64,000 bases of DNA from Psammoneis japonica. Its lineage: Eukaryota. Both the position numbers and the translations under genes were made by a program. Numbering within the stretch: the stretch's first letter is position 1; the number at the start of each line of letters is the position of its first letter. The stretch lies in the NCBI GenBank assembly GCA_008632985.1, contig QPGO01000038.1, forward strand, positions 335,939-399,938, written 5' to 3'. The notes below the pieces were generated by a model that was given only the letters and a program-made list of their open reading frames with translations, had not been told where the DNA came from and ran no database searches. Shown here in pieces: positions 1 to 55,500 of this stretch.

Positions 1-1088
1 CACAACACGAGAACTCAAAATCAGGCATCTTGTTGAGCAGACGATCAAGTTCTTGAGGTGTCATGAACCGTTTCTTGGAAGACTCAGGCTGCAGGGCTTG
101 ATGAACCCCAATGAACATCAAAATGACAACCAACAAATGAATGAATCGGTGACAAAAAACTGAACCGAGTGCGCTTTGTTGGGTCTTGTGGAACAATTCT
201 TGCTTGGATGACATTCCTGGATCGGGCGGCTCCTTGTTGTTGGGTGTCTCCACATCTCTGCAAATGAATCCAGGCATCCACAAGAAAGCCCATGGATGAC
301 ACCCATAAATTGCAAAACGTGTCATGGCAAAAGCCCACACAGATGTCATGTGCACCGACAAAATGTTGAGGACTTCAGGGTGCATCTTGAGAGGAACTTG
401 TCCTTGCTCTTGTTTGACATTGGTCTCCCTCTGACGATCAGTTTGGACAAGATTTGGGCCTTTCATGAACAGCAAACTGATGATGAAACTCATCCACTGG
501 CCCACCAGTTTAACATCGTTCGTGCGAAGTGCAAGCCATGCAGATGCGATTGTTTGTTTGACTCACCACCGGAGCAGACAAATCTTGAGGTTGACCTTGA
601 TCAGTGCCTTGAATGGAGGGATCCCAATTCACACGACATTCATTGGAATTTGCAGCACGGCCCTCTGACTGGTCTTGAGGCACAGCACTGTTCCCAGCAC
701 TCGGATTCCGCACCGGATGACAGTTTGGGTTAGGACCCCCCTCTCAAGCAGCATGATTCGATGTCTCGTGAGTGGTCCAGCAAGCACATCTGCCACACCA
801 ACACTCGGTGACACCGTTGGCCACATGAGCATGAGGCTCATCATGCCTGGGAGGAATCCTGCGAGGATCCCTTGGAGGTCCTCGACCACTGTCATTGTCT
901 CCATGACCACCTCAACCACGTCCACGGCCTCCTCTGCCACCTCGGCCTCTTCCTTGACCTCAGCCACTGCGTCCACCACGTCCACCACACGGCCGCCTCC
1001 TTGAACAATCGGGTGAGGGCAATCAGGACAAACATGGCCCTTTTCGCCACAATTGCAGCAGGTGCAATCATCTTGACAGGTGAGAAAG

Positions 1089-1539
1089 TGCAGCATGCAT
1101 GCAGACAAAAGGTTGTTTTGTCATGCCCTTTGTGACATTTAAAGGCTGCAACACGTCGCCGTGACACATTGACTCTCACTGGCAGCTGTGTGTTGCACTC
1201 CTCCCCATGTGTCACGCGTCCATGTGGCTCTTTGCCAATGTGCGCTGACACTGCACGGTTTTGGCAGAACAGTGTGGGTGCGCACGAAGGAACACACAGA
1301 ACTGCACATAGTTTAACGCGTTCGACAGTGATCAACGTTGCTGCAGACAACTCCCACTCAGGGTTTCGAACCCCTGGCCTCCTGCCTGATGGTTATGATG
1401 AACCACTCCGCCATGAATTCACAATCACAACGCAGCATGCATGCAGACAAAAGGTCATTTTGTCACGCCCTTTGTGACATTTAAAGGCTGTAACACGTCG
1501 CCGTGACACATTGGCTCTTGTTGGCAGCTGTGCATTGCA
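1089..1539 (-). mobile_element. TRIM-like miniature LTR element with an internal tRNA-like Pol III promoter
   Basis: 109-bp direct repeats at 1089-1197 and 1431-1539; element ends TG...CA; 4-bp TSD AAAG (1085-1088, 1540-1543); polypurine tract atggggaggag on the minus strand at 1198-1208, abutting the 3' LTR. Confidence 0.85.
1351..1420 (-). promoter_or_regulatory. tRNA-derived A-box/B-box (Pol III type 2 promoter-like) segment
   Basis: Minus strand reads TGGCGGAGTGG (A-box consensus TRGCNNARYGG) followed by GGTTCGAAACC (B-box) at tRNA-like spacing, with an imperfect T-arm hairpin. Confidence 0.65.
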
Positions 1540-2971
1540 AAAGGACGCAGCTCCAGAATCGCCTTGATTCAAAGGCGTCCACTTGTCACGATCAACCAAG
1601 CTTGTGCAAGCCTCTTGTTGGCACGCACAACAAGATCAGTGCACGCGTGCCTCATGGGATCAATGTCGACTTCATTGAAGACAATCAAGAGCTGAATCCT
1701 GAAGGTCTTGACAGCAGATGTCGCAAGTCCTTCACACATGATTGAAGAAGCATCTTCAGGCAACTTGTGACATCCTTCCAGCTTCCTGCAAATCTCCACA
1801 ATCTTTGCAGCACAATGCAGCTCATTCATGACCAGCTTGAAAATCACGGGTCCACACGCAGGACCACAGACACACTTTTTTGGACATCACCATGAAGAGC
1901 AACGCCAATGGAGTTGAGAAAGAACTTGGCGGACCAAAGCAAGTTCTGCTTGTCATGCTGGTCACCATTCAAGAGCAACTCTTGCACGTGGTCTTCAATC
2001 TCTTGCAGATCTGATGAACCACAATCCGATTGATCTCTTGAGGTGCCCCTGCAGTCGGGTCGTTCCTCTGGATGTAGAGCACGGAATCCGCGCCACTCAT
2101 GAGAAAATGTTTGCTGACTGAATTGACCCAACTAATCACAGACACCTTGTTGTCCTTGTCGGTGTCGATCTTTGACTCCAAACCCTTTTGACAACAAGAG
2201 ACGATCGTCGTAGAGTGACGAAACGACATCAAACACTGACAATGAGGTCAACAAGCTGTGGCATGTGGATCAGCAACTTTCGGACCACCGGTCCAAGCGA
2301 TGTCATTCACAACACCACCAACTTGAGGAACAACTGCAGCAGCAGTCATGCTTGATCTGCCTCAAGAAGCAGAGAAACAACCTTGAGACCGACTCCCAGA
2401 CTCAGCGCTGGAATCGTCCGACGTGTCATCACCTCCAAACAAACCGGCATCATCGCCGATGAGGATGTGTCTTGATCCTTTAGAACAATCACTCATTTTG
2501 GAGAATCAGAGGTTTTGCTTCATTTCAACTCAAGTGGACTCAATTCAAAGCAATGGTGACACTTGGGCTCACAACCACGGAAATGAGCTAGACAACAGCA
2601 TGAGCTGGGGCAACAACAACCGTCTGAAAAGCAGACACACATCAATGGCAACCACCATTGAAGTGCTCATGATCCTTGCAAAAGTCAAAATCTGCAAGAA
2701 GTGAGAGAGAAGAGAAGAGAAGAGAGCCCCAAAAGTAACCCAAAAGATCTGGAGCATCCGAAGGTGTCACTTCAGTGCTGAGTTCCACATGTTTGATGGT
2801 GGGTCGGACAAAGAAATGATGAATGACCCAAAAAAGCAATTCACAAGGAGGATGTGCTCCCGCACATGACCAACCCACATCATCAACTCGGAAACCAATG
2901 ACTCAGAAAGTCAACTCTTGTCACTCCCATCTAAAGACACTGAAACACCGCGGAGGAAAGTCACTTTGTAC

Positions 2972-3360
2972 GATGGGCTCCAGTCCCAGGTGGGACTTTT
3001 TGTGACATTTGCCCCGCAGAATTCTGCGTGTGAGCTCTGCAGTTCACACTTTGGTCAATGGATGTGTTTGTCTTCAACACAAAACAAACAGCCAAGTTTG
3101 CAGCACATCTGTCCCTGTCCGCACTCGAAGTGTTGGATGGCGCACCTGCCCCACGCCATTCTCAAGGCACTCGAGAATGGCGCAGAAGAAAATGGTGTCA
3201 AAAGTTGTTGAATGGATCGCCTGACAATTGCACTGTAAAGTGACACAACATTTTGCCAAAAGCACGTAGAAATGTACGTGCGCGACATACGACGCGATTC
3301 AAAAAACTGTCGATGTCACAGTTCAGCAGCACGAGGTCCCACCCAGACCTGGAATGCGTC
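2972..3360. mobile_element. MITE family 1, TA-converted copy
   Basis: Degenerate ~27-bp TIRs and 4-bp TSD GTAC (2968-2971, 3361-3364); aligns end to end with 28631-29021. Confidence 0.88.
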
Positions 3361-4039
3361 GTACAACAAAATCCACAATGTTCCAAGAATGCAATGACAT
3401 GTCTTGGCAAGCATTCTCCATGAAGGCTCTTTGGAGGCTGGATAGATCAAGAGGGAGCGCTGCACCAAAAATGAGCACATTGTCACCACCAAAAAGCACG
3501 CTCAGCCAAGCAACGCAACATCCTCTGGAGCACTTGCGAAACAGCCGCAGACGTTGTGATCCATGATTCTGATTTTCAACATCCCCTTCCTCCACACGTG
3601 AGCTTTATTTGGTAATGTGCTTCTCTAGTTTGCTTTGTTTGCTGTTGACGACTCTTCGCCTCCATCATTGTTTGGATCGCTGTGTTGTAACTTACCGATG
3701 GATTGCTTGGGACAGTTTTCGTTTTAGATTTGTGTGCTTTATTACTCCGGATTGACTTTCTGTGAGTGACGTCATGAAATTGCCCGCTCCCGCCCGCCAT
3801 CCAAGCGACACGCGACAACATTAACAGTATGTAGCCGGCCAGCCATGATGACCGATGCCACGCCACGAATCTTTTGCCAAACGCCTGGGCGATTTCTGTC
3901 AGAACATCATACAGTATATACTCTGTCCCAGGTGGTGGTTTCTGCTTACCGGTACAAAGATCAAGCCCTGTATTTCTTCTCTGCTCATCTCTAATTTTGC
4001 TTCTTAGAATATTGCAGCTTTGCAACCAGACCTGACAAA

Positions 4040-4195
4040 ATGGCGGATGGAAAATGCTGCGACAACTGCCCCTGTAACACGTGCTCGTGTGTTCTCGACT
4101 GTACGGCCAAGACGCTGTGTATCATATGCTGCCTCATTATCCTGGCGATTGGGGTCGTCATTCTCATTGTCGGGTTGACGGTCGGCTTCAACTGA
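4040..4195 (+). CDS. Putative 51-aa Cys-rich peptide with a C-terminal transmembrane helix
   Basis: Translated by hand (below the ORF-track cutoff): MADGKCCDNCPCNTCSCVLDCTAKTLCIICCLIILAIGVVILIVGLTVGFN; start context AAAATGG. Confidence 0.55.
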   Translation: MADGKCCDNCPCNTCSCVLDCTAKTLCIICCLIILAIGVVILIVGLTVGFN

Positions 4196-4763
4196 GAAAA
4201 TAAAAAAGTGGTACTACAAGGATCGGAAGAGAAAGTATTGTTCGCTCGGTTTAAGAGCACCCGCGTTGCCTGTAGAGAGAAGGAGGGCTTACGGATTTCG
4301 GTAGAAGAGTCCTAAAACAAGACAACGATTTGATACAGAGCGCTTCCTACTTTTCTATTCGTCCATGCCTCTATCTTTTACAAATGGAGGCGCCCAAGGG
4401 CCTAATCGATCACCACCCCGCTTTGCGCAACCCATGCTGCCTTGCATACTGATCGAGTGTCATCCTTGTTTATATTCAAGATTCATTCATTTATTCTGCG
4501 GCTCTGAATCTTCTTCCACACTCATCACCTTTGAGGCCCACTGCAGCTTTGACTTTCGAAAGGTCACGGCGTCAATGGCGGACTTCAATGCCTTTACTGG
4601 ATTTAACTGGCACTGCTTATGCAATCCTTCATCCTTTGGTTCACATTCGTTTTTCCTCGTTTAAACTGTAGTTCCATTGCCGATGACAAGAGGCACGTCA
4701 AATCGTAAATCTGCTTCTTCTCCTCCTTGGACCGACCTGGTTCTTCCTTCTTTTTGCTCGGGC

Positions 4764-5336
4764 CTAAAACTTCATCCTGAAGCTTACAAGGCGCTGTTGC
4801 CTTTCAATATAATCTCTTGAATACATGTAAGATGATCGACTACAGTTTGGAATAGTGTCGTCATCACGGAAAGAACATTGTCTTGCGTCCGTGAGTTCAG
4901 ACGTTACCGATGACTCCATCGTGTCGATGGTGTGATCCGGCATAAACGTAGTTTTCTTTACGGAACCAATAGTTTCATTGTCATTTTCAAAATCGGAAGA
5001 CAATGATCCATTATTCACTTTGTCCCAGTAGTCACTATTGGCACTGAAATCACACGAGTCTTCACTTTCGGAAGCGTCCTCCATATCAAAGTCGTCGTCG
5101 GTGGGCTGTTGAATGTTCGGTATGATCGATTTGAGCGAAGATGTGAACGACGAAACTATGGGTCTCGTTCGAATGACTGGAACGACGAGGATATTCATAT
5201 CCTCAAGCATGGTACCATTGGCGTCTGGACTGTCGCTGTCGTGAAACGACAAGCGAGACGTTCTGCTGTTGGACGCACAAGACAACGAGGACTCGGACAT
5301 GGTCTTGAAAAGCGATTGATTTGTAAGCAGCGACAC
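4764..5336 (-). CDS. Hypothetical Ser/Asp-rich protein
   Basis: 190-aa ORF of low-complexity, protein-like composition; no recognised domain; start could be the second Met. Confidence 0.5.
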   Translation of the reverse strand: MSLLTNQSLFKTMSESSLSCASNSRTSRLSFHDSDSPDANGTMLEDMNILVVPVIRTRPIVSSFTSSLKSIIPNIQQPTDDDFDMEDASESEDSCDFSANSDYWDKVNNGSLSSDFENDNETIGSVKKTTFMPDHTIDTMESSVTSELTDARQCSFRDDDTIPNCSRSSYMYSRDYIERQQRLVSFRMKF

Positions 5337-12013: not shown

Positions 12014-12590
12014 GTGTCAAAACACAGCGGCAGCGCGCAGTTGGGCGCAGCACCAGTGCTCACATCAGGAGCACAGGCCATCATGCATTCAGATTTATCT
12101 TGTCCTGAAGATTGCAAAAGACAGTGCCATTACCCAACCTTTCCAGAATTGATTAAGATATAAAAGTCATCATAGATTCAAGACATGTTTGCTTGAATAC
12201 TACGAATTGCTGAACAATTGCGCGATACACGTGCCCGAAGGGTGATTGTTGCTTCGGGCACGAAATTCGAGCTTCGCGCACGTAGAGACCGTAGAAAATA
12301 TACCAGCATTCGAGAATGTCCGATTTGTGTAGATCACGTAGCACAGTACCACAGAGGTCATTGATGAAATTACTTTAACGACTCATGCGACTACAATGAG
12401 ATTTTCAATACCATATACTATGTAGAATGGACATCTGCGCGAAGGAAGAATGTTGCTTCGGGCAACGATATTCGACCTTCGGGCACGTGTGTCGCGCAAT
12501 TGTTTTGCAATTTGTAGCACGCACATTGTGTCAAAACACACAGCGCGCAGTTGGCAGCGCAGCACCAGTGCTCACATTAGGAGCACAGGC
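12014..12590 (+). repeat. ~65-bp dispersed direct repeat (12014-12078, 12528-12590)
   Basis: Both copies read gtgtcaaaacac...cagcgcgcagttgg...gcgcagcaccagtgctcacat(c/t)aggagcacaggc. Confidence 0.85.
12200..12517. mobile_element. MITE family 2 with ~42-bp TIRs
   Basis: Left end ctacgaattgctgaacaattgcgcgatacacgtgcccgaagg matches the reverse complement of the right end, ctacaaattgcaaaacaattgcgcgacacacgtgcccgaagg; flanks are TA (left) and CA (right). Confidence 0.75.
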
Positions 12591-12859
12591 GCTTGCACAG
12601 CATCGCAGAGAGCAACACGCACGTTGCGTGGAAACGGCCGTTTCTCGCTCCCACCACCACAAACACACAAACATCATCAACACGGAGCACCTGCAACAAT
12701 GGCCATCGCCGCTGAAAATGAGCATCATCGATTTTGCGTTGACACCATTTGACCTGCTGTTGTCAACCCAAAAACCAGTTCACAATGAAAACAAAATGGG
12801 AGTGTTCTCTGGAGACGAGGTGTGCTTCTTCATTCTCACATTTCCAGAACTCATTTCAT

Positions 12860-14330
12860 TTTCCCTCCCACCTTGCCACGAAAACTGCTGCTGGCATCGT
12901 GCCAGCGCTTCCCACTTTTGCACCATCCTTTGGGGAATGATGACCGGCTGGCTTGCTTGCTGGGAATCGTCTGCTTCAACCGTCCAGGTCACATTGTTGC
13001 AACGGCAGTGGCTGTGTGGGTCCCTGCTTTCTCCTCTGTTGGAACAGATGCAGCAGCCATCTCCTTGGCAGCAAGGCTTTCACCTTGAGGTTCCATGTTG
13101 AATGTGCAGCTCCAAGGTTTTGGAATCTTTGTTGCTGTCCAAAGTGACAGTGCTGATGTTGTTCTCCTCCGGGGCGGCTTGCCTTCTTCATCGGAGCAGG
13201 TGGCACAAGAAAATGAGCTCTTGCTTTCATCGTCTGCCAAAACACAGTGTGCGCTGGTCATGCTCGCAGCAGTTTTTGCCTCTCAAGATGTGCAAAAGTG
13301 GGCCAGATTCTGTGTGCGCAGGACTCAGTGTGTTTTCTGCACAAATCGCCAAAGTCACCTCTCCAGCTTGAACCCCCTCAAGGATGATGGAAACTTGAAC
13401 ACAACAAAGCATCCAGGCTGGTCAACTGCGCTCCCCTCAACTTGTTCATGGAGAAAAACTGCAAGTTTCCATGCATTTGTTGTTTCCCACAGCTCTTCAA
13501 AACTCGAACGTCACAATTTTGGAGCCTTGTCAGCATCAGTGTGATCCCGGCACTCCTGCCCTCCTTGCGGCACTGGAAGGGCTTGATGGAAGCTGCACAG
13601 ACAGCATCACAAGTGGCCTCTTTGTGTGCATGCAGCACAAAGTGGTGCTGTCCTTCTTGTGAAAAAGTGCAAAAGTGTGGTTGGAGCAAGCAACCAGCTC
13701 TCTTCCTTCCTCAAGGGGCCCATGCTCACTCATCAGAGTGTGGCTGGTTTGCAGCAAGAGCTGGAGCAGTGGCAAGCACAGCCACCTCCTCACAAACAAT
13801 GCATGACAGTGGGATGTTCTGAGAACCAAAAGTGTGCTGCATGTGGTCACAAAATGCTTTGGCCCACTTCACAACAGGTGGAGACTTGGAGATCTTGGGG
13901 ACAACTTGATCATTGTCTTGCTCACACTGTGGAGCCTTCCGAGATCTCCGGAAATTCTTGAGAACAGGACTCCAATGCATGTTGGCTGCAGTGAGCTCTC
14001 TGCCAAGTGTGCCACAACACTTGGCATCTTGCAGAGCTGCCTTCAGCTGTGCACTGTGCTTTTGGCAAAAAGAACAACAGAAGCAGGGGTTGGAACAACT
14101 GCACCTGCAGGAGTGCAAGGGTTTGGATCAGTGACATTTCCTCCTGTGAAGGCTTCTTGAGGTTTTCAAATGGTTGCTTGAGACCTTCCTCATCAACATC
14201 CATCATGTCATTGACAAACTCAAGGCCTTCGACCATGAGCTGGGCACAAGTTGCATCAGGTGGCACTGTCTGATCAGTGTCCCCTGAAAGAAGGCATTGA
14301 TTTGTGTGGCGGCAAATGCTGTGGCAATCA
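12860..14330 (-). mobile_element. Degenerate CoDi-like Copia gag
   Basis: Fragments AKCCGTLGRELTAANMHW, VPKISKSPPVVKW, NIPLSCIV, APALAANQPHSDE and EAT...CAASIKPFQCRKEGRSA resemble diatom Copia gag with Y->C and R->C/H changes. Confidence 0.75.
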
Positions 14331-14789
14331 GCCAGCAGTGTGGCTCTGACAAAGTGCAAAAAGTGCTTCAATGAAAAAAATGCAATCTGTTGAAATTGTG
14401 AGACCTCTGTTGCATGGAGATTTTTGCATTGCACCACAGACCCAAAAATGTCAATGACATCAACAAATGACCAGGGCATTTCCAGAGCATCATGCACCAG
14501 CATGTCCAAAGAGTTTGTGGACACACCACTGAAACAAGCCAGCAGTCCTCTGGCTGTGCCTTGTCAATCACACAAGGACCAGAGCCATGAAACTCATTGC
14601 CTTTGGGAGCAGGGCACATGCAGCTTTTGATCTTTGGTTGATGCCAATGAGCCTTTTTGTGACAACACTCCTGGCTCATTTTTGTGCATGCTTTGTGTGC
14701 GCCCCCCAGCTCTTGCCCTGCCACAGCAGCGACAAGCACCCAGTTGAAGGAGACAAAAACGGGAGCTTCGCTCTTTGAACTTGGGCCAA

Positions 14790-15480
14790 TCCGGTGCGGC
14801 CCGATTGTTGCATGCACTGCCAGCATCCAATGGAGGACCAAGATCACATTCTACAGTGTCCCCATGATGAAGAATGGCACAGAAAGTTTTTGCAAGGCCT
14901 GCGGAAAAAGTGTGACGACATTCACACATCACCATCCAACTGTGATTTGATCCTTTCATCAATCAAGACATGGTTCCGAGAGGAAAATTGTGCATTCGGA
15001 CGGTCTTCATGGGAGTGTGTTGGCGGTTTTCCGATCCCAGGATGCTGTTGGCTGGAGGCATGTCTTTGGTGGACGTTTTTCCTGTGAATGGAATGTGACA
15101 CAGCAAGCTTGCCTGTTGTCCAGTGGACTGCATCAGGATCTTTTGGACAAAGAGCAGCTTTTGGACTGGGCAGCAACTGTCGGCAATTGTGTTTGGGAGC
15201 AATGGTGGGAGTTGCGGGACTCTCATGACGACAATGTGCACGGCCACGATTCGGACACTGGGAAGTCATCCCAATGGAGAGACGCTGAGGCAGAGGTTCA
15301 AGCCATTCACTCAAGATCAGACGAATGTCTTGCAAAGGACAGATCACAATTGTTCGATTTGGTTGAAGAACATCTCACACATTCCACCCATTGCATTCGA
15401 AAATGGCTGGCTGTGGTCAAACTGATGTTCAAGTTGAGCATTGAAGAAGCCAAGCATCCAGCTGCACGTGGAACTTGAGC
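14790..15480 (+). mobile_element. Degenerate non-LTR retrotransposon ORF C-terminus
   Basis: CMHCQHPMEDQDHILQC zinc knuckle followed by QDAVGWRHVFGGRFSCEW and WEQWWELR...VHG, typical of LINE-like ORF2 tails. Confidence 0.6.
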
Positions 15481-16659
15481 TGTCGCAAGTTGCTTTGGCA
15501 TGGCATTGCCTGCGGGTGATGCCAATCCTGGCCAATTGTTGTGTGCTCCTGCCGCACCATTGGTGTGCTGGGGGTGTGGGTTGGCTTGTTGCCAGAGTTG
15601 TGGGGTGGAAGTGCAGCAGCACTTTAAAGATGGAAGTTTGGTTTCGTTTTGTTCTTTGAACTTGGGCCAAAGTTTTTCCATGTGGGATGGGCAGCAATGA
15701 GCAACATGAGAATGACCTCAGCTGTGGTGTCACAAAGTAAAAACTCTCCATTGATGGGCCCACTTTGACCACTTTTGCTGTCAGCTTTTCAGGCTCTGTC
15801 TTGATTGGAGTCATTTTGTTTCCAGTGATTTCATCTTCAATGCAACCGGGCCCCCCTTGATCTGCCCAACACATTTTGGGCTCTGACACTTCCACGTCTG
15901 CTGGCGGCGACATTGTCCTGCAGCAGTGGGGCATCTTCCATGAGTTGTTCATCACAGAATTCTCAAAAATGATGAATCAAGATTCCTTGCTTCCTTTTTC
16001 TGCTTTCTTCTCTTTAGTCAACATGCTTTGGAACCCAGCGCTGGTGCAAAAGCCACTGAAATGAGAGATGGACCATCAAATGTCAAAGTCATTGGGTGTC
16101 ACACAACACAATGACTTGCAGGACAAATGACAAGGCCAAGACAGTGCTTTGTGTGATGGCTGCAAAGCCACCAAACAACAAGTGGCAAAAACCTCACTTG
16201 GAAGTGTGCAGAAGTGCAAATGTGAGGATGAGTGTTGCTGCAATGAGAGTGACCCATCAACACCCAATGGGCTCATGCACTCTTTCTTTGCCAATCAGTT
16301 CCAGGCATCCTCAATGAGGGGGTGGTGCTGGTCCTGCTCTCTGCAAGCACTGAACAGCGCCATCTCTGAGAGGGGTTCCACATGTTGAGACAGGGAGGTG
16401 TCAAAGCCCTGTTGCAAGATGCCACCAACACCACAATCTTCCAAGACAGCCAGCCAAAGCAGCATTGCAAAAATGGCTCCAATGCCAGACTCCACAAAAA
16501 ACATGTGCACAGGGTGGCAAAATGCATGTCCAAACCCCAGCCTCTCACTCTCATCGCTGCATCAACTGCACAAAAACCTCTTTCTTCTCAGACTGACTCA
16601 CTCACAAGCAGCACACCAAGGCAGTTGGGATCAAGCCTTCCAACAAGCACGTGGCTGCG

Positions 16660-16905
16660 TGAAGTGATCAGCCCCACATCTGCATCAAACATTTGGGGCT
16701 CAAGTGTGCAATGATTGCTGGCTGATCCAATGACAGCCTGCTGACAAACATGACTTTTGCTGTGAGGTGCATTTGCTCATGCTTGCTGCATGAAGTGATC
16801 AGCCCCATCTGCATCAAACATTTGGGGCTCAAGTGTGCAAATGCTGACTGATCCAATGACAGTGTGCTGACAAGCATGACTTTTGCTGTGAGGTGCACTT
16901 GCTGC
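16660..16905 (+). repeat. ~130-bp tandem duplication
   Basis: tgaagtgatcagcccca...catttggggctcaagtgtgcaa...catgacttttgctgtgaggtgca occurs twice. Confidence 0.85.
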
Positions 16906-17872
16906 AGCGCATGTTGCTGGCAACTGTTGCACTCCTTTGTCTGTGCATGGCTGGTCCACTTTGTGCATTGCGTGCAGCAAGCTTGATGAAATGGCACCAC
17001 AATGATGTGTGACAAACAAAGCATCATGTGTGTTGGCATGCAAAAGCCCCAGAGTGTCTCACATCTTGTCGGGCAAGCCCGAGGCAGGTGCGCTTCCAAA
17101 AAAAAAAGAACACGTTTTGCTCCAAAGTGTTGAGCAGTGTGTTCTCCATGTTGGCCAGCCTCCTGTCAAAATTGTGTGATTTGTTGGGTGCTGCTTGCCT
17201 TGATGCATGATCTGATGGACCAAGATGCTGGGGCAAGAGCCTGAGTGCTCCCATTTTTGTTTGGCTGACGCGCCAGTGGAAAGTTGAAGACGAGCCAGCG
17301 CAGCCTCCACCACAACAAAAACAAGAGAAGCTCCATCTTGCAGCAGCATGAGACACTCTCTCATTTTGTTTTTGCAGGATGTCCAGCCCATGTCAATGAG
17401 AGCCAGGCACCTGCACACCAAACAAAACCAAAAGCACTGACACAACTGCAGTGTGAAACCAGCGTGTGCCCCGCAACAAGTGGAAAAACATGTTTGTGGC
17501 AAGTTCATTCACTCAAGAGCCAAATGCCATCAATGTGGACAAAACACAGGCACACAAAGAAATGTCAACATTGTTGTTCTCGATTTGTTGGTTGTGGGCG
17601 GAATTGGATTTGGATTGTGAATTTGAAATTTGAAGATTTTTTTCGTCAGTCAGTCGCTCGGCAAGTCTTTTGCATTTTCGACGGTTACCGTAAAGTGTAC
17701 GTAGGAATTAGTAATGTTTCTTGAAAGTACTGAATTACCACGAATCTTCTACATACGAAATCATGTTATTAATTCTACAGATATACTACACAAAAATAAT
17801 AGTGATTGACAAATTCAGCAACGGTCACGACACAAACCAAAAAAGTTGTTCGTTCGCGCTCGATTTTCGATC

Positions 17873-18176
17873 ACAACTCGTCGTCTCGCACGATGTGTTT
17901 GTTGTTTGCCAAGCAGGAACGCAGGCGATCGCCCAGGATGGCTCACCCTTCCTGTGGATAATAGAAAGTCTTCTCTTGCTTGGCAGTTATACAACTCATT
18001 TTGCTTGATGGCGTGTTGTCTCTCTTTTAAAACTCGTCGTCTTGCACGATGTGTTTGTTGTTTGCCAAGCAACGAATGCCGCGATCGCCGAGGATGGCTC
18101 GCCCTTCTTCTGGAACAGATTGCTCGCTCTTGTTTGGAATTCCACAAATCATTTTGCTTGATGGCGTGTTTTCTCA
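17873..18176 (+). repeat. ~157-bp tandem duplication
   Basis: aactcgtcgtct(c/t)gcacgatgtgtttgttgtttgccaagca...tcattttgcttgatggcgtgtt occurs twice. Confidence 0.85.
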
Positions 18177-19347
18177 ATCGGCGGCGTAGGTGTTGCCAGT
18201 TAAGTCCGGAGGTCGGGGCAAATCGAATGCGTCTCTCCGGCCTTGAGTCCATGTCACTCTCGTGTCTTCGAGCGTAGGAAGTTGCCTGTTCGCTTGACCC
18301 GTCAGGTCACGGCTGTTGAAACAGACAGCAGCGTTCGTCTGTGAAGCAACAATAGCTTGCCAAGCAGATCATACCGTTGACGGAACGCGGGGTTTGGGGT
18401 TCCGTCGTACCAGTGACGTGGTACGGTAAGTCTTCATTCGTAAGGAATGTTGATTTAGCACGCGGTTGACTCGCAAGTTTTCTTGTTGTCTCCGTAGTAC
18501 GTCCCCCCTTTTTCTTTTTTTTGGGATGGTGATCCACCCCGAAAATAGGAAAAAGCTTGAGCTCCATCTTCTGATGGCGCTCTTGAGGCAATGCTATCCT
18601 ACGCAACCGATTTCAATAGCTACTTTGAAACTTTTCCTTCGGATTCATTCTGATGTTATTACAAATAGTGATCTAAATTACCATATATAATACAGATCTA
18701 GGGTTATGGGGGGGTTTAGAGCATTCCGTGCGCAAGTGATTGCGATGGCGGCCGTAGAGTTTGTTGTGTAGGCGTCTCTTGCTGCCGTTTCTGTTTCGAT
18801 TCTTTCGTAGGTACCTCGTCTTGTTTTGTATCAATGGACCTTGTCAGTAGTTCTATTGTTGTGTTACCGGTAAGATGATCCATTCGTATCAGCACCAACA
18901 CCGTTTTGAAACAAAAGATTATAATAACGAAACATGCAGTCAAAGTATGCTGTCTGCTGGCGAGCGATGGGATTTGTTCCATTTCCTCCTCCGTGGCTTA
19001 GCAAATTCACATTAATTGGAGTTCCTTGCATATATTTTGCTTTCGGCTGCTTCTTGGCCTGTTTCTTTGCAGACATGACCATATCTTCACCGTTGCCTTC
19101 CTGCTTCCTGAACGCAGACATCGCCTAAAGTTTCTCCGCTTTCTTTCACCACGATTGTAGAAAAACGAGCTGAACAGCACGAAAGCGCAGCTTTGTCTCC
19201 TTACAATCCAAAGTTGGGTCCGAGAGTCCATCCAAGTGGCCTGTAAGATTAACAAGTACCATATATGAGAATCCAATCGCTTCCTTTCGAACACTATGCT
19301 ATTCCACAAACTCGATACACTTACCTGAGCTCCTCAAAATTGTAGGA

Positions 19348-20230: not shown

Positions 20231-20239
20231 GTTCTTCCA

Positions 20240-21580: not shown

Positions 21581-21871
21581 GATGATGGAACACGATGAAT
21601 GACATTGAGGGCTTTGTCAAGGCTAAAAGTTGAGACTCTACACAATGCCGGATGCAGTGATGATAATCTTCCAACATAATCATAAGTACAGCACCCCGCG
21701 GCACGCGGCTCGCAGACAGCGTTGTTTCTGCGCCGACTGTACGTCGACGTGATCTTCCATGTTGCGAGGTCGACAAGCGTGCCATTAAATGCACCGCCAA
21801 GGTGTACACCACCTGGGCTCCCAGATTAGCTGTCCGGTTATTCTGATCTAGTTTTTGAAGAAAAACATTCT

Positions 21872-22480
21872 TCAGAAACAAGGCAGACAATGGCGTGGCA
21901 GTGAAAGTCCACAGCAGCTGCCTTGCAATGGTGATTGAGGACTCTCCTGTTGGTTTCCTGGGGAACATGCCAAGAACCATGGTTGGTTGGTGCAAGCTTT
22001 GTCTTGGGCAGATGCATCACCTTGTTGTCCTGGCAGACAAGGATTGTGCCCCCCCCCCCCCCCATCATCAGAGTCCTGCTGCAGAACCAAGAGGCAGCAG
22101 ACAATGGCACGACAGTGCAAGTCCACAGTTGCCTTGCACTGGCAATGCATCACTCTGTTGGGTCTCTGGGGACATGCCAAGAATTGTGGTTGGGCAGTGC
22201 AAGCCTTGTCTTGGGCAGACGCAGCCCCTTGTTGTGTCCTGGCAAACCAAGATTTTGCCCCCCAGCCCTGCTGCAGAAACAAGGCAGAGAACAGTGTGAT
22301 GGGGCAAGTCCACAGCTGCCTTGCAACAGTGATGGTGAAAACTCAGTTGAGTCCCTGGGGGCATGCCAAGAACCATGGTTGGGCTGTGCAAGCCTTGTCA
22401 TGGGTCCACACAGCACCTTGTTGTCCTGGCAGACCAGGATTTTGTCCCACCAGTCCTGCTGCTGAAACAAGGTAGACAGC
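21872..22480 (+). repeat. Three-unit tandem repeat, unit about 190-205 bp
   Basis: cagaa(a/c)caag...aagtccacag...catgccaagaa...gtgcaagc...tcctggca repeated three times. Confidence 0.88.
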
Positions 22481-31722: not shown

Positions 31723-32112
31723 ATGTTAATGTCCAGCATGGCATCCGGTGTTGGGCATGTTGTGGAGCTCAAGCACCTTGACTTGTCAAACAGCTGCCTC
31801 GACCCAGCTTTTTCTGGTGACATTTTTCATTTGCCCTTTTTGGAGACGCTTTCACTGGGTGAAAACCACTTCACTGGTGGAACCGTCCCAGACAATTTTG
31901 ATGTGTTGCAAGAAGTGAAAGAGGTCCAGAAGAGCAACAACCAATTCATTTTGTTGCTTCCATGCATGGTGACACTCAGGTCATTAGAAAGCTTGCATTT
32001 GGAGGGAAATCCATTTGAGCCCACTGTTCCACACGTCTGTGGCGTCCCTCCAACAGATGAACCCAGCCAAAAACCAACAAACAGAGGCGCTGAAGCTTGT
32101 GAAGCCTTTTAG
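31723..32112 (+). pseudogene. Leucine-rich-repeat protein fragment
   Basis: LKHLDLSNS, LETLSLGENHFTG, LRSLESLHLEGNPF. Confidence 0.75.
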
Positions 32113-38177: not shown

Positions 38178-38759
38178 TCATTGCAGTACGGAAGCGCAAG
38201 ATCGCTGCTCTGAGACACGCGCCAAAATAGAGAGCGGGACGCATGACGGACAGTCTTTCTCGTCCGACCTGCGTCACGCGCAACAGATTTTGTGCTGCAT
38301 TGTGCGAAGCATTTGTTTCTTGCAGTGAGCGATGAGGCCATGGCTTTGCGCCGCTTCACGACAAAAAAGGCTTCCTTTTGCAATGGCTGCCTGAAATCTT
38401 CAGGGAGAGTCATCAAAAGTTGTGATCTTGACACACAAGAAGGAGGAGCATTCTCTTCTCAGCAGCGCCGGCAGCCAGCACAGATCAGGTCATTGGGCCA
38501 AGGCAGCTCAGCACTCCCCTGCAGTTGTGCAAACCAGTGTGCAGACTCCAGCATCAAGCTGGACCAAGCATTGGACAGCAAGACAACTCTGGCCCCACTT
38601 GTGTGTGGCTGCAGAGCGACACATGGGGTTTGGGCTGAGTGAAAGGAGAGAGAGAGCGCTGATCGTCAGAGGTCAGTTGCCTCTCAAACAGCCAAGTCAA
38701 CAGTGTCAATTGGCACCCTGATTTTCATTTTCGTCTTCATCTTGGCAGGTGTCTGATGC

Positions 38760-39450
38760 AAATTAGAATTCAGAATCCATGAAAGTGCACATCCACCATG
38801 GAATTCTGGAGCAGCGGTGACTTTTCCACAGGTGCGCCCGACTCCCTCACACACGAGAAGCTCCTCTGCGGCTCTCAAGGACTGTTTTCCCATTTTTCTT
38901 GTTGCTTGAGCCAGCCTCCAAAGATGAATGTCAAAAAAGGTGCCATGACACAGAGAAACGTGTTGAAGATTGTGCGCACGGTGCTTCGAGCATGTGGGTG
39001 TGCATCATTGAGGCCATGCTGCTGTTCAAAACAATGATCAGATGCCGCTGCATTTGTGAAGAGAACCACCATCCACAATCCAAATGTCATGAGCCACCAC
39101 ACTTTCCACTTTTTGGGTGGTGTTGGAGAAACAGTTTGGCCCTGTTGGGTGCATGTGTCCATGAAAACGTCAGGAAGATGTCGGTGTTTTTGGAGTTGCA
39201 TTGTGCTGGGCATCACAAGGAGTGGCTCCAGTTGTTGCATGAGATGAGCTCTGAAAGGAGATGCCACATAAAGATTGAGCATGTCAATCAACTTGAAAGT
39301 TAAACAAGGCACACACAGGTCAACGTTTTTGGGAGATTGGATCCCTGTTGAAGCAACAAACCTCTGTTCAAAATGAGGGCTGATCTTTCTCTGCATGAGG
39401 ATGTCCTGAACATGACTCTACAACACGGTGGTGTTGCTTCTTCAGCCACA
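38760..39450 (-). pseudogene. ABM-like (antibiotic biosynthesis monooxygenase-associated) membrane protein pseudogene
   Basis: PPKKWKVWWLMTFGLW...VMAPFLTFIFGGWL resembles the PPxWK...W and P.l..lf..WL pattern of this family. Confidence 0.5.
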
Positions 39451-40829
39451 TTTTTTTCTGCTGCTGTGCATGATTTTCATTTGGTGAGAGCAAAGTCAGC
39501 AGCAAGAGCAGTTGGCTGGTCTATTGGCAATTGTTGAAGGAGAGATGTTGCTCCATGTTGGCTTCATCATCCCAGTGTGGGGCATGCTGCTTCTTTCAGA
39601 ACTTGAGGATGGCAATTTTTTTGAATGGCTGAAGAAACAAGAGGGTGTGGCTCATCTTCTGCCTGCAAAAGATTTGCCCTTGCTGAAAAAACATGTTTGG
39701 ATTGAAAACGAGACTGAGCAGACAAGATCACTCTCGATCAAGTGCTGCAGCACAAGGCCAGAACAAAGGCACACAAGTCTGAAATCAATGTGCAGCAGCA
39801 CGCCATTGCCACCGAGTTTGTTGATCAAGAAGTGGAACAGCAAGAGGTTCACATGCTCTCGCCGCCAAAGACTCGAAGTGGCGCTGTCACACAACTGCAG
39901 AAACTGTCTTTCAAACGGATCGAATTTGGTGGGGTGCCACCATGTGTCTGGTTCCTGCAGTGTTGCTGTTGGGTTTCACACCGGCATTTCGACGGGAAAC
40001 CCTCGGCTACAAGCAAAACGCTAAATGAGTTGCATCCACTGGAGTTGCTTGTGATTATGAAAACGTCATTGCAACCACAATTTTTGCATCTGAGTTGAAT
40101 GTCCCACTCCTCCAATGGCTTTTAGAGTTGATGGGAATTTGCTCTTGTCGGGAGCGACGACAGTTGCTTCTATCGGCATGAGTTGCATTTGGAGAGCCTG
40201 TGATTGTACGCTCGGCACTGAAGGCAGGCCCCATCACGATGCGACGTCACCATCAAAACTCCTGTGCAGGCAGAGACGGGCACCAATCGCCAGGCAAGGA
40301 CCATCTGCAGTCTGCATGTAGTTTGTCAGTTTCTACAGTTGCCGATCAATTTTTTGGCTGTGGTCTCTGATCCTCATGGTGGTCTGACCTTTTCAAGAAG
40401 TTCATCAGTCATCATGTCACAAGATCAGGCGACTTGCAATTCTTTTGAAATTGAGAGGCCTTGCCTCCATCCACTGGCATGAAGTTCCAGGATGCAAAAG
40501 GCATTGATTTCTTCTCCTGGTGGGCCCTGGCAACTGCAGCAAAAAATCTGCCAATGACCACTGTGACATGGTTTGCAGAGTTTGCTTCTTGGAAAAAATC
40601 AAATCAACTGTCCCACATTGATTCATTGTGTGCATCAACAAGCTCTCAACACTGCCGTTGAAGACATGATGCCAAACCCATGCTGGTCCCTGAATCTGCC
40701 AAGTTTCTCCAATGTGCCGACTTGAGTGCAGCAATTTCCTCCACCTCAAGCCTCACCCAGCTGGAAAAAACAAACAAAGTCACAGACTGATGTCATGGGG
40801 CACAGTCATTTTGGCACACGCTTTTTGAC

Positions 40830-41900
40830 TTTCTCAAGAACACCCTGAAAAGGGCTGTTCAACAAGATGTCCAATCTCCTCAATCCCAAAAAGACACTGA
40901 CAAAGAACAGCAACAACAGGAGCTGTCAACTGGCATGAAGCACCCACCACAGCAAGTGGAAGAGTCACAGAGCAAATTGTCAAGAAGCGCAAAGCATGCC
41001 TTGAATGGCTCCACAAGAGGCATGGGTGTGTGGGAGATCTTTTCACATGGCTTGGTTCACATGACTTGGGACATGACACAAGGGTGCAGACCTCCCAGTG
41101 AGACAAATCACATGGAGGTGCAAACTCTCAGCATTTTCCATTGCACCCATCTCTTTCAGAGATTTCATTGATCATTTCCTGCACCACAGTGGGAAGGCTT
41201 GCTTGGTGGGAAGATGGAAGCTGTTGCAGGCAAGGATCTCTTGTTGCCCAAATGGATCTGTCCCCTGATGACCATGGCTGTAGCACAATTTGTGCTGTTG
41301 GTGAAGTGGCTGGTTCCAGACCAGCCCACTGGCCTTGTTGCTCAATCAGAGTGTCATGCAGCGGCCCTCTGAGTGCCACATCATCTCACATTGCAGCTGT
41401 GTTGGGCAAGAAGGGCAAACCTTTAACACAGGGTGGGCACTTCCAGGCTGCACATGAAGAAGGACGCAGAGGAATTGATGACATGCTTGGACTTGTGTTG
41501 TGTGTGACAGCAATTGAAGCTCTTCTTGCCATGGATGTGCAGATTCTAGCAGCAGAGAACGCAGCAGGCAGCACTGACTTTTGACCCACCATCAATGCAT
41601 TGACACCCACATCTCTGGTGGCAAAACCACAGAGGTTGTCTGCACCAACGCAGAGCAGGTGTGATTGATTTTGGGCCATGCCATGGAGCTGGCAAGCTGC
41701 AAACCCTGGCTTGATTGTTGGCTGTGCAGCCTTCTTGTCAGGAATCGCACGAGGGGCGATGGGAGCCAAAGCTGTTCCTTTCTTTGCCAACAAGCCAAAG
41801 CCAGCAAACCAACTCACCAGTGCAGTGATTGAGACTAGAGATCCAATGCATCAGCTGCCACTGTGGCACAAACACCACCAGCAGCTGCTGGCCAGCAGCA
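40830..41900 (-). pseudogene. Bestrophin-like (UPF0187/VCCN) anion channel pseudogene
   Basis: SRHALRFLTI..VTLPLAVV...TAPVVAV...LFGIEEIGHLVEQPF; upstream boundary approximate. Confidence 0.8.
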
Positions 41901-42404
41901 AACAAAGCAGCAGATTTGCGTGCAGGAGCAGCATGATGACCACGGGGCAGCACAGACACAGCAGAGCTCCATTTGTGGCAATTTGTTGGAAATGAGGTCA
42001 GCAATTCACAACAGCAGCTTTCTTGGTTTCACAACACGGGGCGTTGGCAAAGCTCGAGGGCTGTTGCTCACGCCACATTTGAGTTTCTTTGGGGAGGGAG
42101 TTGGTGGCAGCGCACACTGGCTGAACCAGCTTGTTTCAATCTGTGTCGCTGCTGCCCTCTACAAGTCATCATTCTTAAATTCCAGCTTGTCGGCAGCCAA
42201 GTCCGATCTTGCAAGCGGAGCAAAGAATCATCAAACAAGATCCGCGTGGTCCTTCGCATGAGCACACGTGATCTTCGTCGAAAGGACCGCACATGTGCGC
42301 ACTTTGGCTGACACTTCAACTTGACACCCCCCCAAAAAAGATTTCAAGACAGATGTAGATCTCGCCTGCGCAACAAACGCACTCAAACGACGGATGCATG
42401 CACG

Positions 42405-44655
<2,251 letters not shown>

Positions 44656-51982: not shown

Positions 51983-52269
51983 GGCGGACAGTTATGGAAC
52001 GTGTCTCGAAGCTAGTGTCTATGAACGCAGTCTAAGCTTATGGGACGTGACAAAGGCAACACTTCGTCTTTATCAGAGTGCTATAACACACTAGTTTTCT
52101 TGCCAACGCCGCAATGGTTGCGGGCGACATTGTCTCCAACGCTCCCGTAGCACTAGTATTTTAACCCACTGTCACGTTGGATCTACAGAGGCAGGTACCA
52201 CAAATGAAATGATAATAATGTGAATAAAACTATACGTGATTGAAAAAATCTGAACGAATTGAATCGATG

Positions 52270-55200
52270 ACCTGTCCTGGCTCGGACTCGATGGTTGGCA
52301 GTTTTGTTCTCCATGTGCAACCCCCTCCATGAAATTGATGCTGCGGTTCTGGATGACAAGAGTGCAAGAGCAGAGGTTCTTGCCACTCATGGTTCAAAGA
52401 GAGGCTGACTCTTTGATGAAAGCACACTCTCCTTTTCAATGTTGCGTGGTTTGTGGTGGAGAGAGACTGACATGATTGACACCATTTGTGGCAAGTGCAC
52501 ATGGCTTCTGTGTGCAATGCATCATCACAGAGTTTGCTTCTCCTGAACCAGCAAGGCACATGAGATCCATGGCAAAAAAGCATTTTTTGGTGCTGTTGAC
52601 TCAAGAAGGATCATGAAATTTTCTTGGCCAGGCATCAGACATTGAACGGAGTCAAGTGCAGTTGTTTTGCTGTTGGTGCTCTGCTTCAGCACAAGGTGAC
52701 TTCCAAAAAAACCTTGTGTGCAATTGCTCCCCACTTTGTCAATTTGTAACAGAGCTCCCCAGAAGAAATCAAAAATGCCACCTCTTGTGTGAGCAAGAAG
52801 ATCAACATCTTCTCTTGGGGCTGCATCTGTTTTCTGGCACTGACAAAGCACATGATGTGTCGAGTCCAGAGCTGGGCTGACACATGTGCCCATCATTCAA
52901 GGAAATCACAGAGCAAAAGAGATTGGATGAGACACCCCACCCTTCTTGCCGACAGAACATGCCAACACAAGAAGCATGTTTAAGCAGCAGACAACAATTG
53001 CTGTGCACACACAGCATGCTCTCAGTTCTCAGTGCAACCCAGACAACAGGCCAGTGGTGCTCCGTGGTGCTGGTTCAAACAAGCAGTTGAAAACACAGTT
53101 GAGTGGAGCAGGAAGGAAAAGGCAGCAGTGCCACACAGGGCCAAGAGGAGCTGTGCAAGCTCTTCTGTCTTTTGTTGTTAAATGGAGTGGTGTGCTGTGC
53201 TTGTGGTTTTCATGCTCTGGGGGACAAAGTTGGTGGGGCAGCAGCTTTGGTTGTGTGGTGCTTTGTCAGCAATGTGAAGAGAGGAGAGGCCAGGCTGGAT
53301 GCTCCAGTCTTTTGCTCCACATTGTTGCAAGCATTCTTGCCTGAACATCCTTGTTCTTTGTGTCTTCTGTGAGAATGTGACCCTCACAATAAAACACCAT
53401 TGCATGTTTGTCCCATTCTCAAGCAAAATCTCAACAACACGTGCATTGTTCCTTCTTGCTTTTGTCGTTGGGGTTGAGAATGTCCATGTTGGACCCAGCC
53501 TGCTGTGTGAGCCTTCTCAGCATGTTGGCACAACCTCTGCAGTTGGCTCAGCTTGCCGTGGGCATTGAAAACTCAACCACATGCCAAGTGTTCTGTGTGC
53601 TTCTGCTCACAGTGGCAGAGTGTTGCCCATGTCATTGGGCTCAACAATGGGCCATGTGCTGCATGTGCCACACAGCAAGCTGCAGACAGAGAATCTAAAA
53701 TTTGAGCACATGCACATGCTGTCAACTGAAGGATTGCTGCATTCCATCAATCTGTTGGTGGACAAACAGCTTGACATGACCAGATTTTTTTCAAAATTTT
53801 AAGCTCTTTGCCAAATGTTTTCTGAGCTCTTCTGCCCTGACTGTGTCAGAGCCTTGGCTTTGTTCTCCCCTTTGTGCAGAACACAGCCATCTGGAGCACT
53901 TCAATGCAGAAGGCATGGGAGAAAAAGAACATTCCTGTCAAAAACAGTTTGACCCAAAAAGATGCAGAAGAAACAGAACAATCCTGTCCAGAGTGCTTTG
54001 AATGTTGTTTGGCCCTTGCCCCCCCCCCCCCTCTCTGGCTCTGGTGGATGAAAAAAATAAACAGCTGCAACACACAAACAGAAATGAGTGCACTGGCTGG
54101 AGGAGCAACAAAACAAAACACAACAACAAAACAACATTAACAACTTGGCACAGGTGAGGACATGGACATTCTGGATGTCATCTGCTGGGCCACAACAGGC
54201 ACACAGAGAAGGTGGTTGTGATGGCAGTGCTTGTTGCCATGCACTGCCTGTTTCTAAAATCAAGTTTGCTGCATTTTCTGTCTTGAGAACATCATCCATG
54301 ACCCCTCTCATCTCAATGTTGAAAGCACCAAGATCAGTGGCTCATCTTTGTCTTTGTTCACCTTCTTCTTGCAACTTGGCCAACAAGAGAGCTGCAAAAC
54401 TCTTGGCAAATCTCTTGCTTTCCTCAGCACAGTGGCAGGAATGGCAGCCCAGGCCTGGCTGTTGTTCCCAAACAATGAGTGTGCACTCAAGTTGCCTTTG
54501 TTGGCCTGAGCCCCACAAGACAAAGATCAGCACAGGCATTTTGATTTCATCAAACTTGGTTGGGTGGTGGTGTGGCTCAGCATGTGCTTGCAGCTTTCCA
54601 ACAAAACACCCATCTGGGCTGTGGCTCTCATCCTTGTCAGCTCCTCTGGAGATCCAGTGAAGACTGTTGATGCAGAAGCTTCTGCCAGTTCAGGAACAAG
54701 CAGGCTCTTGCTCTTTAAAAGAAAAAATCACTTTGACCTGGCTGCTTTTGGTGACAAGCCTTTGGCATTCCTGACATTTCAACTCATGACAGATGCTGCC
54801 ACTCCTGCGCTGTGCCTGAAGAATGGACTTGACAAAAGAGCATGAACAATGGCATGGGTGCACAAAAGAGAAGAGAAAGAAAAAAATTGCATGCTTCACT
54901 TTGTGTTTTGTTGTGAGCAACTGCAACTCTGCAGCTCTTGGACTTTGTGGTACAAAACACCCACACAAGTGTGCTTGGGTGAAACTCAAATTGTGGCAGC
55001 TGTGCAGCACAACTTTGTTTTGTGTTTGTTGGCTGTTCTGCTCTTGGACTCATGGAGACAACAGTGCCCCAGCAGGTGGCAACATGATTGCTGTTGCAAG
55101 CAAGGTGTGAATGATGAGAGATGGCCACAAAATTGTGTTGCTTGAGCATTTTGTTGGAGGTTTCTGAAGACACAATGGCGCTTTTGGGTGGAAGATCACT

Positions 55201-55500
55201 GCAGCACTCACATTTTTGTTGAAGGGCTCTCAAGCCTGAGTGTGACAGCAAAGCAAAGTGCAGGGCAGTTTGAAGATTGTGGCAAAAGCAATGAGAAAAA
55301 TGAGGCTGCTAAAACAGGAACCTCACATTCTTCAGTGTGCTGCAATCTGACTCTGACTCACTTCCTTTCTCAGCCAGCAGCCAACAGCAGCACTCCTGAG
55401 TGCAAAGCTCCAACCAAGTGCTTCTCTTGGACAAGTTTGTTGTACACACAGCCCACTCTAGCTAGAGTGGCTGGCTGGCATGTCCACTGAAATGCGTCGA
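52270..55500. other. TpA-depleted hypermutated block E with unidentified degraded coding remnants
   Basis: TA nearly absent; protein-like remnant on the minus strand at about 54130-54560 (EESKRFAKSFAALLLAKLQEE...). Confidence 0.9.

Follow-up and report, generated by a model that had tools for sequence, protein, structure and literature searches.

A Probable TpA Hypermutation Process in Discrete Blocks of the Genome of the Diatom Psammoneis japonica

Introduction

A stretch of 64,000 bp from the diatom Psammoneis japonica (GenBank assembly GCA_008632985.1, contig QPGO01000038.1, positions 335,939 to 399,938) contains blocks of several kilobases in which the dinucleotide TA is almost missing. 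The genes beside these blocks have a normal TA content. The whole stretch is called the window here and all positions are given within it. How was the TA lost? An earlier reading of the window from its letters (the sequence-only reading) had proposed a defence system that hypermutates repeats and dead gene copies at TpA, and had remarked that it knew of no description of such a process. The analysis reported here indicates that the blocks are probably discrete nuclear domains with a strand-symmetric mutation process from TpA to TpG or CpA, to which decay of CpG is added. This would be the same kind of process as the TpA hypermutation of the rhizarian alga Bigelowiella natans, where de novo mutations from TpA to TpG and CpA have been reported (Mettrop et al., bioRxiv 10.64898/2026.01.13.699255, version 2026-04-14). 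The earlier remark on the lack of a description has thus been overtaken.

In mutation-accumulation lines of B. natans, 231 of 302 nuclear single-nucleotide mutations were in an integrated nucleocytoplasmic large DNA virus (NCLDV, 186 kb) and virophage (25 kb) (bioRxiv 10.64898/2026.01.13.699255). All but one of the mutations in these viral regions (230/231) were A>G or T>C, and all GC-biased mutations were at TpA. The rate was approximately 6e-7 per site per generation, some 1000-fold above background, and 11 of 15 lines showed the process. The hypermutated NCLDV region is single copy. The genome also contained 124 clusters of windows poor in TpA and rich in CpA and TpG. The authors proposed an adenine deaminase, with ADAT2/3 homologues as candidates, and a role in defence, and drew an analogy to ADAR, for which U is preferred before the edited A (bioRxiv 10.64898/2026.01.13.699255). 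This preprint is the one prior report of TpA-specific hypermutation of resident DNA, from a single alga. No description of TpA erasure in diatoms was found in a literature search that left most subscription journals outside, and the B. natans preprint was the only comparable report.

Composition and Extent of the Blocks

Blocks were detected using the observed/expected ratios (o/e) of dinucleotides in sliding 1-kb windows and by segmenting the 64 kb with a two-state model of TA counts in 100-bp bins. Six TA-depleted segments were found. Together they comprised 26,200 bp (26.2 of 64 kb) with 96 TA and 482 CG, while the normal DNA of the window comprised 34,800 bp with 1292 TA and 2102 CG. The TA rate of the flanks predicts approximately 970 TA for the blocks, compared to the 96 counted. 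Normal segments had a TA o/e of 0.47 to 0.60 and a CG o/e of about 1. The o/e of TG and CA in the blocks ranged from 1.56 to 1.94. The TA-poor, CG-reduced and TG/CA-rich blocks that the sequence-only reading had placed beside genes of normal TA content were recovered almost exactly.

Block 1 was located at 1-3200 and contained 17 TA (o/e 0.08), with an o/e of 0.57 for CG, 1.72 for TG and 1.56 for CA. The window begins within this block and its right edge is diffuse, reaching approximately 3600. Block 2 was the most complete, with 4 TA (o/e 0.01) and a CG o/e of 0.29 at 12579-17685 (12601-17600 by segmentation). The longest TA-free run, 2274 bp at 12578-14852, was in this block. Block 3 had two parts. 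Block 3a at 21850-28600 (segmentation 21901-28600) contained 15 TA (o/e 0.03) with a CG o/e of 0.22 and block 3b at 29001-33052 (segmentation 29001-33000) contained 27 TA (o/e 0.10) with a CG o/e of 0.35. These had been described as one block at 21860-33150. The depletion was confirmed but the block was not continuous, being divided by a TA-normal island of 400 bp at 28601-29000. Block 4 at 38229-42355 (segmentation 38201-42400) contained 21 TA (o/e 0.08) with a CG o/e of 0.39. Block 5 at 52234-55400 (segmentation 52301-55400) contained 12 TA (o/e 0.06) and had the strongest CpG loss (11 CG, o/e 0.06).

Most block edges were abrupt and could be resolved to tens or hundreds of bases. The final TA of the left flank of block 2 was at 12578. 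At its right edge there was no TA from 16015 to 17686, followed by 18 TA within 115 bp. The left edge of block 5, at 52233, was also abrupt. Inside the blocks TG and CA alternated at spacings of a few bases.

A further low-TA segment at 58401-59800 was rejected as a block. It had a CG o/e of 1.37 and a TG o/e of 1.00 and is low-complexity coding sequence. The open frame at 57194-61342 on the minus strand encodes 1382 amino acids with no Pfam match and has an AA o/e of up to 1.79 and an AT skew of -0.375. TA is low in this frame while CG and TG are normal. It resembles a gene for a low-complexity protein and is unrelated to the blocks.

Two Conversions and the Dinucleotide Profile

The gain of CA and TG in the blocks was 76.3 per kb. 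The losses of TA (33.5 per kb) and CG (41.9 per kb) came to 75.4 per kb. A simulation was run on the normal DNA in which only random TA>TG/CA and CG>TG/CA conversions were made. It reproduced the profile of all 16 dinucleotides in the blocks with a correlation of r = 0.98 and a root-mean-square deviation (RMSD) of 0.10, compared to r = 0.73 and an RMSD of 0.32 for unconverted normal DNA. GC content was nearly unchanged between blocks and normal DNA, at 0.489 versus 0.483, because the TA and CG conversions offset each other. Judged by composition, the blocks have lost about 90% of their TA and about 70% of their CG through the two conversions together.

The CpG part has the signature of 5-methylcytosine decay, with CpG>TpG/CpA and a CG o/e of 0.06 to 0.57 across the blocks. 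It is probably the ordinary decay of methylated CpG to TG and CA, alongside the conversion of TpA. Deamination of 5-methylcytosine, as in vertebrates, some basidiomycetes and diatom transposable elements, accounts for the CG>TG/CA half of the shift but cannot remove TpA. The TA loss is a separate term of comparable size. Diatoms are reported to methylate transposons through DNMT5a (PMC9998398), which fits the CpG half of the signal.

Mutated and Unmutated Copies of a Repeat

A transposon-like repeat of approximately 395 bp, similar to miniature inverted-repeat transposable elements, was present in two copies in the window. Its terminal inverted repeats are approximately 19 bp. Copy A (28638-29032, plus strand) is unmutated and lies in the TA-normal island within block 3, with 30 TA (o/e 0.93) and 26 CG (o/e 1.56). 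Copy B (2979-3370, plus strand) is mutated and lies at the edge of block 1. In copy B the 30 TA of copy A had become CA in 13 cases and TG in seven; four were still TA and six were other. No TA was gained, as all 5 TA of copy B aligned to TA in copy A. Copy B had lost TA at every one of its first 21 positions, and the retained TA were at 3236-3288, toward the exterior of the block. The domain edge is thus graded and runs through the repeat.

Changes were then counted by site class in copy A. At TpA sites 26 of 59 were changed, 21 by T>C or A>G. Changes were found at 24 of 166 other A/T sites (11 being A>G or T>C), at 10 of 51 CpG sites and at 14 of 110 other G/C sites. The sequence-only reading had named an excess of A>G and T>C at TpA over other contexts as the check on its proposal, and this excess was present in the repeat pair (21/59 versus 11/166). 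Sixteen of the 26 CG of copy A were kept in copy B and five were TG or CA. TA loss was thus ahead of CpG loss, with 20/30 TA converted compared to 5/26 CG, and the two processes are therefore separable.

Another conceivable source is hyper-editing of double stranded RNA by an ADAR-like enzyme, after which the edited copies are reverse-transcribed and inserted. ADAR edits A after A as well, whereas AA was not depleted in the blocks (o/e 1.21). Erasure was above 90%, both strands were equally affected and the blocks are mosaics of several kilobases, not single retrocopies. The repeat resembles a DNA transposon and has terminal inverted repeats; its mutations arose in place and form a gradient at the block edge. 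The preference of ADAR for U before the edited A, on which the analogy in the B. natans preprint is built, speaks for an RNA route, but such a route is very improbable here.

An Intact LPMO_10/CBM_14 Gene and Its Relic

An intact gene at 33466-34935 on the plus strand encodes LPMO_10 (E = 4e-09) and CBM_14 (E = 5e-09) domains. Its segment has a TA o/e of 0.55 and a CG o/e of 0.98. A dead paralogue, LPMO_10-like with a CBM_14 match (E = 4e-07), was located 9 kb away in block 3a, at 24464-27339 on the plus strand. The intact gene is the parent or a paralogue of this relic. The two were compared by tblastx and segments had 45 to 79% amino-acid identity, with in-frame stops in the relic. Over 1221 aligned nucleotides none of the 44 TA of the gene was kept in the relic, where 14 were TG and 13 CA. 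Two of the gene's 61 CG were kept, while 15 were TG and 15 CA. The pair is old, with approximately 58% identity at the DNA level, and much of the comparison is noise.

Tyr in the intact gene was replaced by Cys or His in the relic at at least 12 positions and by Gln at one. The Tyr to Cys and His changes follow from the conversion of TA to TG or CA, and the earlier claim of such replacements in relics was upheld. The two products were formed in similar numbers in the gene pair (TG:CA 14:13) and in a ratio of 7:13 in the repeat pair. Conversion of TA to TG or CA on either strand, described by the sequence-only reading as almost complete, is supported by both comparisons (27/44 with 0 kept in the gene pair and 20/30 in the repeat pair).

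The two pairs also bear on a native origin of the composition, in which foreign or selected DNA never held TA. Most of the block sequence is without an identifiable homologue, as this origin would have it. The repeat copy and the gene paralogue, however, have relatives of normal TA content in the window and show TA replaced specifically by TG and CA, and the depth of the blocks is equal to that of host DNA (see below). A native composition is hardly credible.

Flanks of the Surviving TA

The TA that survived in the blocks differed in their flanks from those in normal DNA. RTAY (R, purine; Y, pyrimidine) made up 4 of the 96 survivors compared to 425 of 1292 TA in normal DNA, while YTAR made up 55 of 96 compared to 202 of 1292. 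The contrast of the two flank classes between blocks and normal DNA gave a chi-square of 110. No survivor was found at ATAC/GTAT or at ATAT, which had 216 and 96 occurrences, respectively, in normal DNA. Candidate CA/TG precursors were equally frequent in both flank classes (1416 and 1328), and biased creation of new TA is therefore an unlikely cause. The simplest reading would be a preference for the A in 5'-TAY-3'.

Read Depth and Copy Number

Contigs were taken from a public data set of one sample (runs X1-X3), using k-mer contigs of run X1. No RNA run containing the stretch was listed, which speaks neither for nor against expression. Over 23170-24985 and 25244-28611 in block 3, contigs matched for 604 to 1816 bp with 0 to 1 differences at a depth of 63 to 70. 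The depth of the contig over normal flank was 58. The block 3 contigs listed are at single-copy depth, equal to the host flank.

A sequencing or assembly artefact, in which a modified base at TpA is misread and TA is really present, is very hard to reconcile with these contigs. For run X1 the platform is unrecorded, and the run may come from the sample behind the assembly of the window, which leaves the artefact some room. The contigs repeat stretches of 600 to 1800 bp of block 3 almost without difference. Since TA is palindromic, a base misread on both strands should yield strand-pure versions of TG or CA, each with half the depth. What is found is an interleaving of TG and CA at full depth. 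Ordinary fixed substitutions and indels also accompany the conversions in relic codons and repeat copies. The artefact is very unlikely.

The bins of block 2 were at approximately 2 to 5 times single-copy depth at 85% likeness or above in run X1, which suggests some 2 to 5 copies of this block. A total of 770 differences separated the window from other X1 contigs, and 40 of these were displayed. Among these 40 there were four adjacent CA<->TG swaps in block 2, at 13243-4, 14580-1, 15867-8 and 16097-8. Such swaps are expected if diverged copies independently converted the same ancestral TA or CG. Compared to the window copy of the repeat at approximately 12.3 kb, other genomic copies had TA>TG at 12300 and TA>CA at 12376. 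The family of copy A is extremely abundant, with a summed depth of approximately 112,000 in bin 28343-29009 compared to 58 to 70 for single-copy contigs.

These depths allow a homology trigger to be weighed, in which duplicates are recognised through pairing and mutation strikes both of them, as in repeat-induced point mutation (RIP), with TpA as the target instead of CpA. The targets include a paralogue whose intact gene lies 9 kb away as well as a repeat copy, block 2 shows the raised depth given above, and RID-related DNMT4 genes are reported in 31 of 60 diatom species (PMC9998398). However, the intact paralogue was untouched, an unmutated copy of the window's highest-copy repeat lies within a block, the listed block 3 contigs are at single-copy depth, and block edges depart from the edges of repeat units. 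The hypermutated NCLDV region of B. natans is likewise single copy. The spared copy A and the untouched paralogue argue against a trigger by copy number or homology and favour positional targeting, episodic activity or a recent arrival of copy A. Repeats as the trigger, as the sequence-only reading had it, were therefore not supported, and a RIP-like trigger is quite improbable.

Two further stretches had high summed X1 depth. About 150 bp in block 3 (25008-25674; loose ends 25032-25187) was TA-free with a summed depth of approximately 10,900. It may be a high-copy family with copies already converted, or a simple repeat. The region of normal TA adjoining block 2 (17875-18175; 17671-19004) had a summed depth of 2500 to 5200 and contained an internal direct repeat of 149 bp with 83% identity. 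The region at 17671-19004 is another abundant repeat family, of which this copy is not TA-depleted.

Content of the Blocks and Flanks

All 201 stop-to-stop open reading frames (ORFs) of at least 70 amino acids in the blocks were scanned with Pfam. Four relics were recognisable in addition to the LPMO_10-like one. A glutathione-reductase-like relic (Pyr_redox and Pyr_redox_dim) was located at 28890-29976 in block 3b. Its best solved match was glutathione reductase (E = 3.5e-10), and a search of a large protein collection, limited to longer proteins, gave no match. A leucine-rich repeat (LRR) relic was located at 31717-32109 in the same block. Block 4 contained a bestrophin-like relic (Bestrophin_2, E = 4e-09) at 40837-41127 on the minus strand and an M17 peptidase relic (Peptidase_M17, E = 2e-06) at 41669-41992 on the plus strand. 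The recognisable relics look like host genes in their sequence. A six-frame read-through of block 3 with X at stops added nothing to the Pfam scan.

No credible protein homology was found in blocks 1, 2 and 5, using Pfam on the block ORFs and wider searches with selected ORFs. The ORF at 13925-14563 on the minus strand had one match among 1.84 billion representatives, a repeated weak alignment to an immunoglobulin-domain protein with 27 to 29% identity over approximately 60 residues. This was judged spurious. No usable match was found for the ORF at 15347-15976 on the minus strand in a protein-atlas search. ORFs of approximately 200 amino acids arise by chance in TA-free DNA, where only TGA stops remain. 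The median period-3 coding signal was 1.2 in the blocks, near that of shuffled DNA (0.9), and 2.8 outside. Many overlapping ORFs of 150 to 230 amino acids were present on both strands of the blocks and gene callers would probably report these as hypothetical proteins. The blocks also contained short diverged direct or tandem duplications at 1090-1539, 16654-16903, 21870-22482 and 27743-28001, with 108 to 435 bp aligned and 74 to 91% identity.

The genes of the normal segments encode a cyclin, an AMOP-domain protein, an HbpS-like protein, SSRP1 with an HMG box, a catalase-peroxidase, SAE2, Sec10, PhyH and a SacI-domain protein. The nearest named relatives of SSRP1 were all from diatoms (Attheya 72%, Odontella 68%, and Nitzschia, Pseudo-nitzschia and Skeletonema 62 to 68%). 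Its metagenome matches were seven contigs of 1.2 to 5.1 kb, which were too short for context and were not used. The catalase-peroxidase gene (KatG-type, 42982-44655, plus strand) had its nearest relatives, at 82 to 88% identity, only in metagenomes and metatranscriptomes. Named eukaryotic relatives of this gene from green algae, oomycetes, Triparma and Bigelowiella were at 50 to 59%, with Bigelowiella natans at 50%. By these two genes the window belongs to a diatom and not to B. natans.

Discussion

The window contains discrete domains that are probably nuclear and probably subject to a strand-symmetric TpA>TpG/CpA mutation process of the kind described in B. natans, with CpG decay in addition. 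The conversions with their direction and symmetry, the restriction to domains, the lead of TA over CpG loss in the repeat pair and the flank bias can all be read from the DNA itself. Artefact, native composition, RNA editing and a RIP-like trigger each fail at least one direct test.

A different source of the same changes would be a by-product of heterochromatin chemistry or repair with no dedicated deaminase. This could be thymine oxidation at TpA, where 5-hydroxymethyl- or 5-formyl-uracil pairs with G, or biased processing of T:G mismatches in methylated DNA. T>C transitions are a known result of thymine oxidation, and in E. coli CTAG is depleted by very-short-patch repair. TA and CpG are lost in the same domains, the targets include host pseudogenes and not recognisable invaders, and T>C and A>G at TpA are indistinguishable from the letters alone. 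Against a by-product are the near-complete erasure, the sharp edges and the separation of TA loss from CpG loss in the repeat pair. The B. natans process, moreover, was on in some lines only and at about 1000 times the background, and looks regulated in the data available from the preprint. A by-product is rather unlikely.

Several results weigh against a domain-wide TpA process with a role in defence. No transposase, reverse transcriptase, integrase or viral domain was found by Pfam in the 201 block ORFs. A role against invaders is plausible, by analogy and from one repeat copy. The sequence-only reading had remarked that no responsible enzyme was evident in the window, and indeed the scan of window ORFs turned up no deaminase domain. 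A link of flank to product (RTAR>CA, YTAY>TG) was a non-significant trend (7:3 versus 9:12, p = 0.25). The noise in the old gene pair and the unrecorded platform and possible shared origin of run X1 belong here also. Finally, the unmutated copy A within block 3 means that the process is not continuously active there or that copy A arrived recently. It is compatible with episodic activity.

The process may be pictured as follows. TpA would be turned into TpG or CpA through A>G within 5'-TA-3' on either of the two strands, with methylated CpG decaying to the same products in parallel. The targets would be non-functional DNA set by position and not by copy number, namely a dead paralogue, host-like relics, a repeat copy and unidentifiable sequence; neighbouring expressed-looking genes are untouched. 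The agent may be an enzyme with DNA as its substrate that is drawn to silenced or methylated chromatin and works in episodes. The most economical candidate would be an adenine deaminase, whose product inosine is read as G, with a mutagenic thymine modification as the main alternative. The effect would be permanent inactivation of invading or useless DNA.

The likeness to B. natans, as described in the available text of the preprint, lies in the TpA>TpG and TpA>CpA signature, the GC-increasing direction of this change, its restriction to regions, the clusters poor in TpA and rich in CpA and TpG, and an apparently episodic action. There are also differences. The host is a diatom here and a rhizarian alga there. 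Targets in B. natans are viral, with transposable element domains enriched, whereas here they are host-like pseudogenes, a repeat copy and unidentifiable DNA, with no viral domain found in the block ORFs. Depletion in the B. natans NCLDV is partial (Rho TpA 0.45) compared to a TA o/e of 0.01 to 0.10 here. CpG loss accompanies TA loss in the diatom, while the term CpG has 0 occurrences in the preprint text available, and the RTAY/YTAR bias found here has no counterpart in its main text, which gives no flank preference. Live mutations were observed in B. natans, whereas here the process is deduced from fixed differences.

Fungal RIP is similar in that unwanted DNA is irreversibly inactivated by context-specific transitions, leaving blocks of skewed dinucleotides beside normal genes. 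It acts by C>T mainly at CpA, creates TpA and lowers GC, whereas in the present blocks TpA has been lost, CpA and TpG have risen and GC has stayed the same. Fungal RIP is also triggered by duplication in the sexual phase, whereas the intact paralogue and copy A of a very high-copy repeat were spared here. APOBEC3 (C>U in viral DNA) and ADAR (A>I in double stranded RNA) likewise hypermutate with a neighbour-base preference and are used against invaders, and ADAR shares the favoured U before the edited base. These enzymes act on replication intermediates or RNA in a looser context, unlike the present process, which affects resident chromosomal domains and does not deplete AA. In the CTAG depletion of E. 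coli, words containing TA are also turned into words containing CA or TG, through T:G mismatch processing linked to cytosine methylation. Unlike the blocks, that depletion is bacterial, genome-wide and weak and concerns one pentanucleotide site.

A process of this kind is thus already in print. What is new here is the diatom lineage, the near-complete erasure, the coupled CpG decay, the host pseudogene and transposon-like targets, and the flank bias. The same signature, far more complete, is found in a distant and ecologically dominant group, and the gene could be sought by comparing species with and without it. TA-free tracts without TAA and TAG stops yield long spurious ORFs and hide real homologies, and will thereby mislead gene prediction and repeat detection in genomes of this kind.

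It is conceivable, and put forward tentatively, that the agent is a dedicated TpA-specific DNA adenine editor, targeted to chromatin domains and preferring RTAY, which is common to diatoms and chlorarachniophytes and hence old in the SAR group (stramenopiles, alveolates and Rhizaria). It would work with CpG methylation as a permanent silencing system, a "reverse RIP". A natural enzyme editing adenine in DNA would be of direct interest for base-editing work, and if this editor exists it would be the first natural adenine deaminase on chromosomal DNA. In the diatom it would erase Tyr codons, stop codons, and TATA-like and polyadenylation-like signals in all DNA that bears a mark of silencing, dead host genes included.

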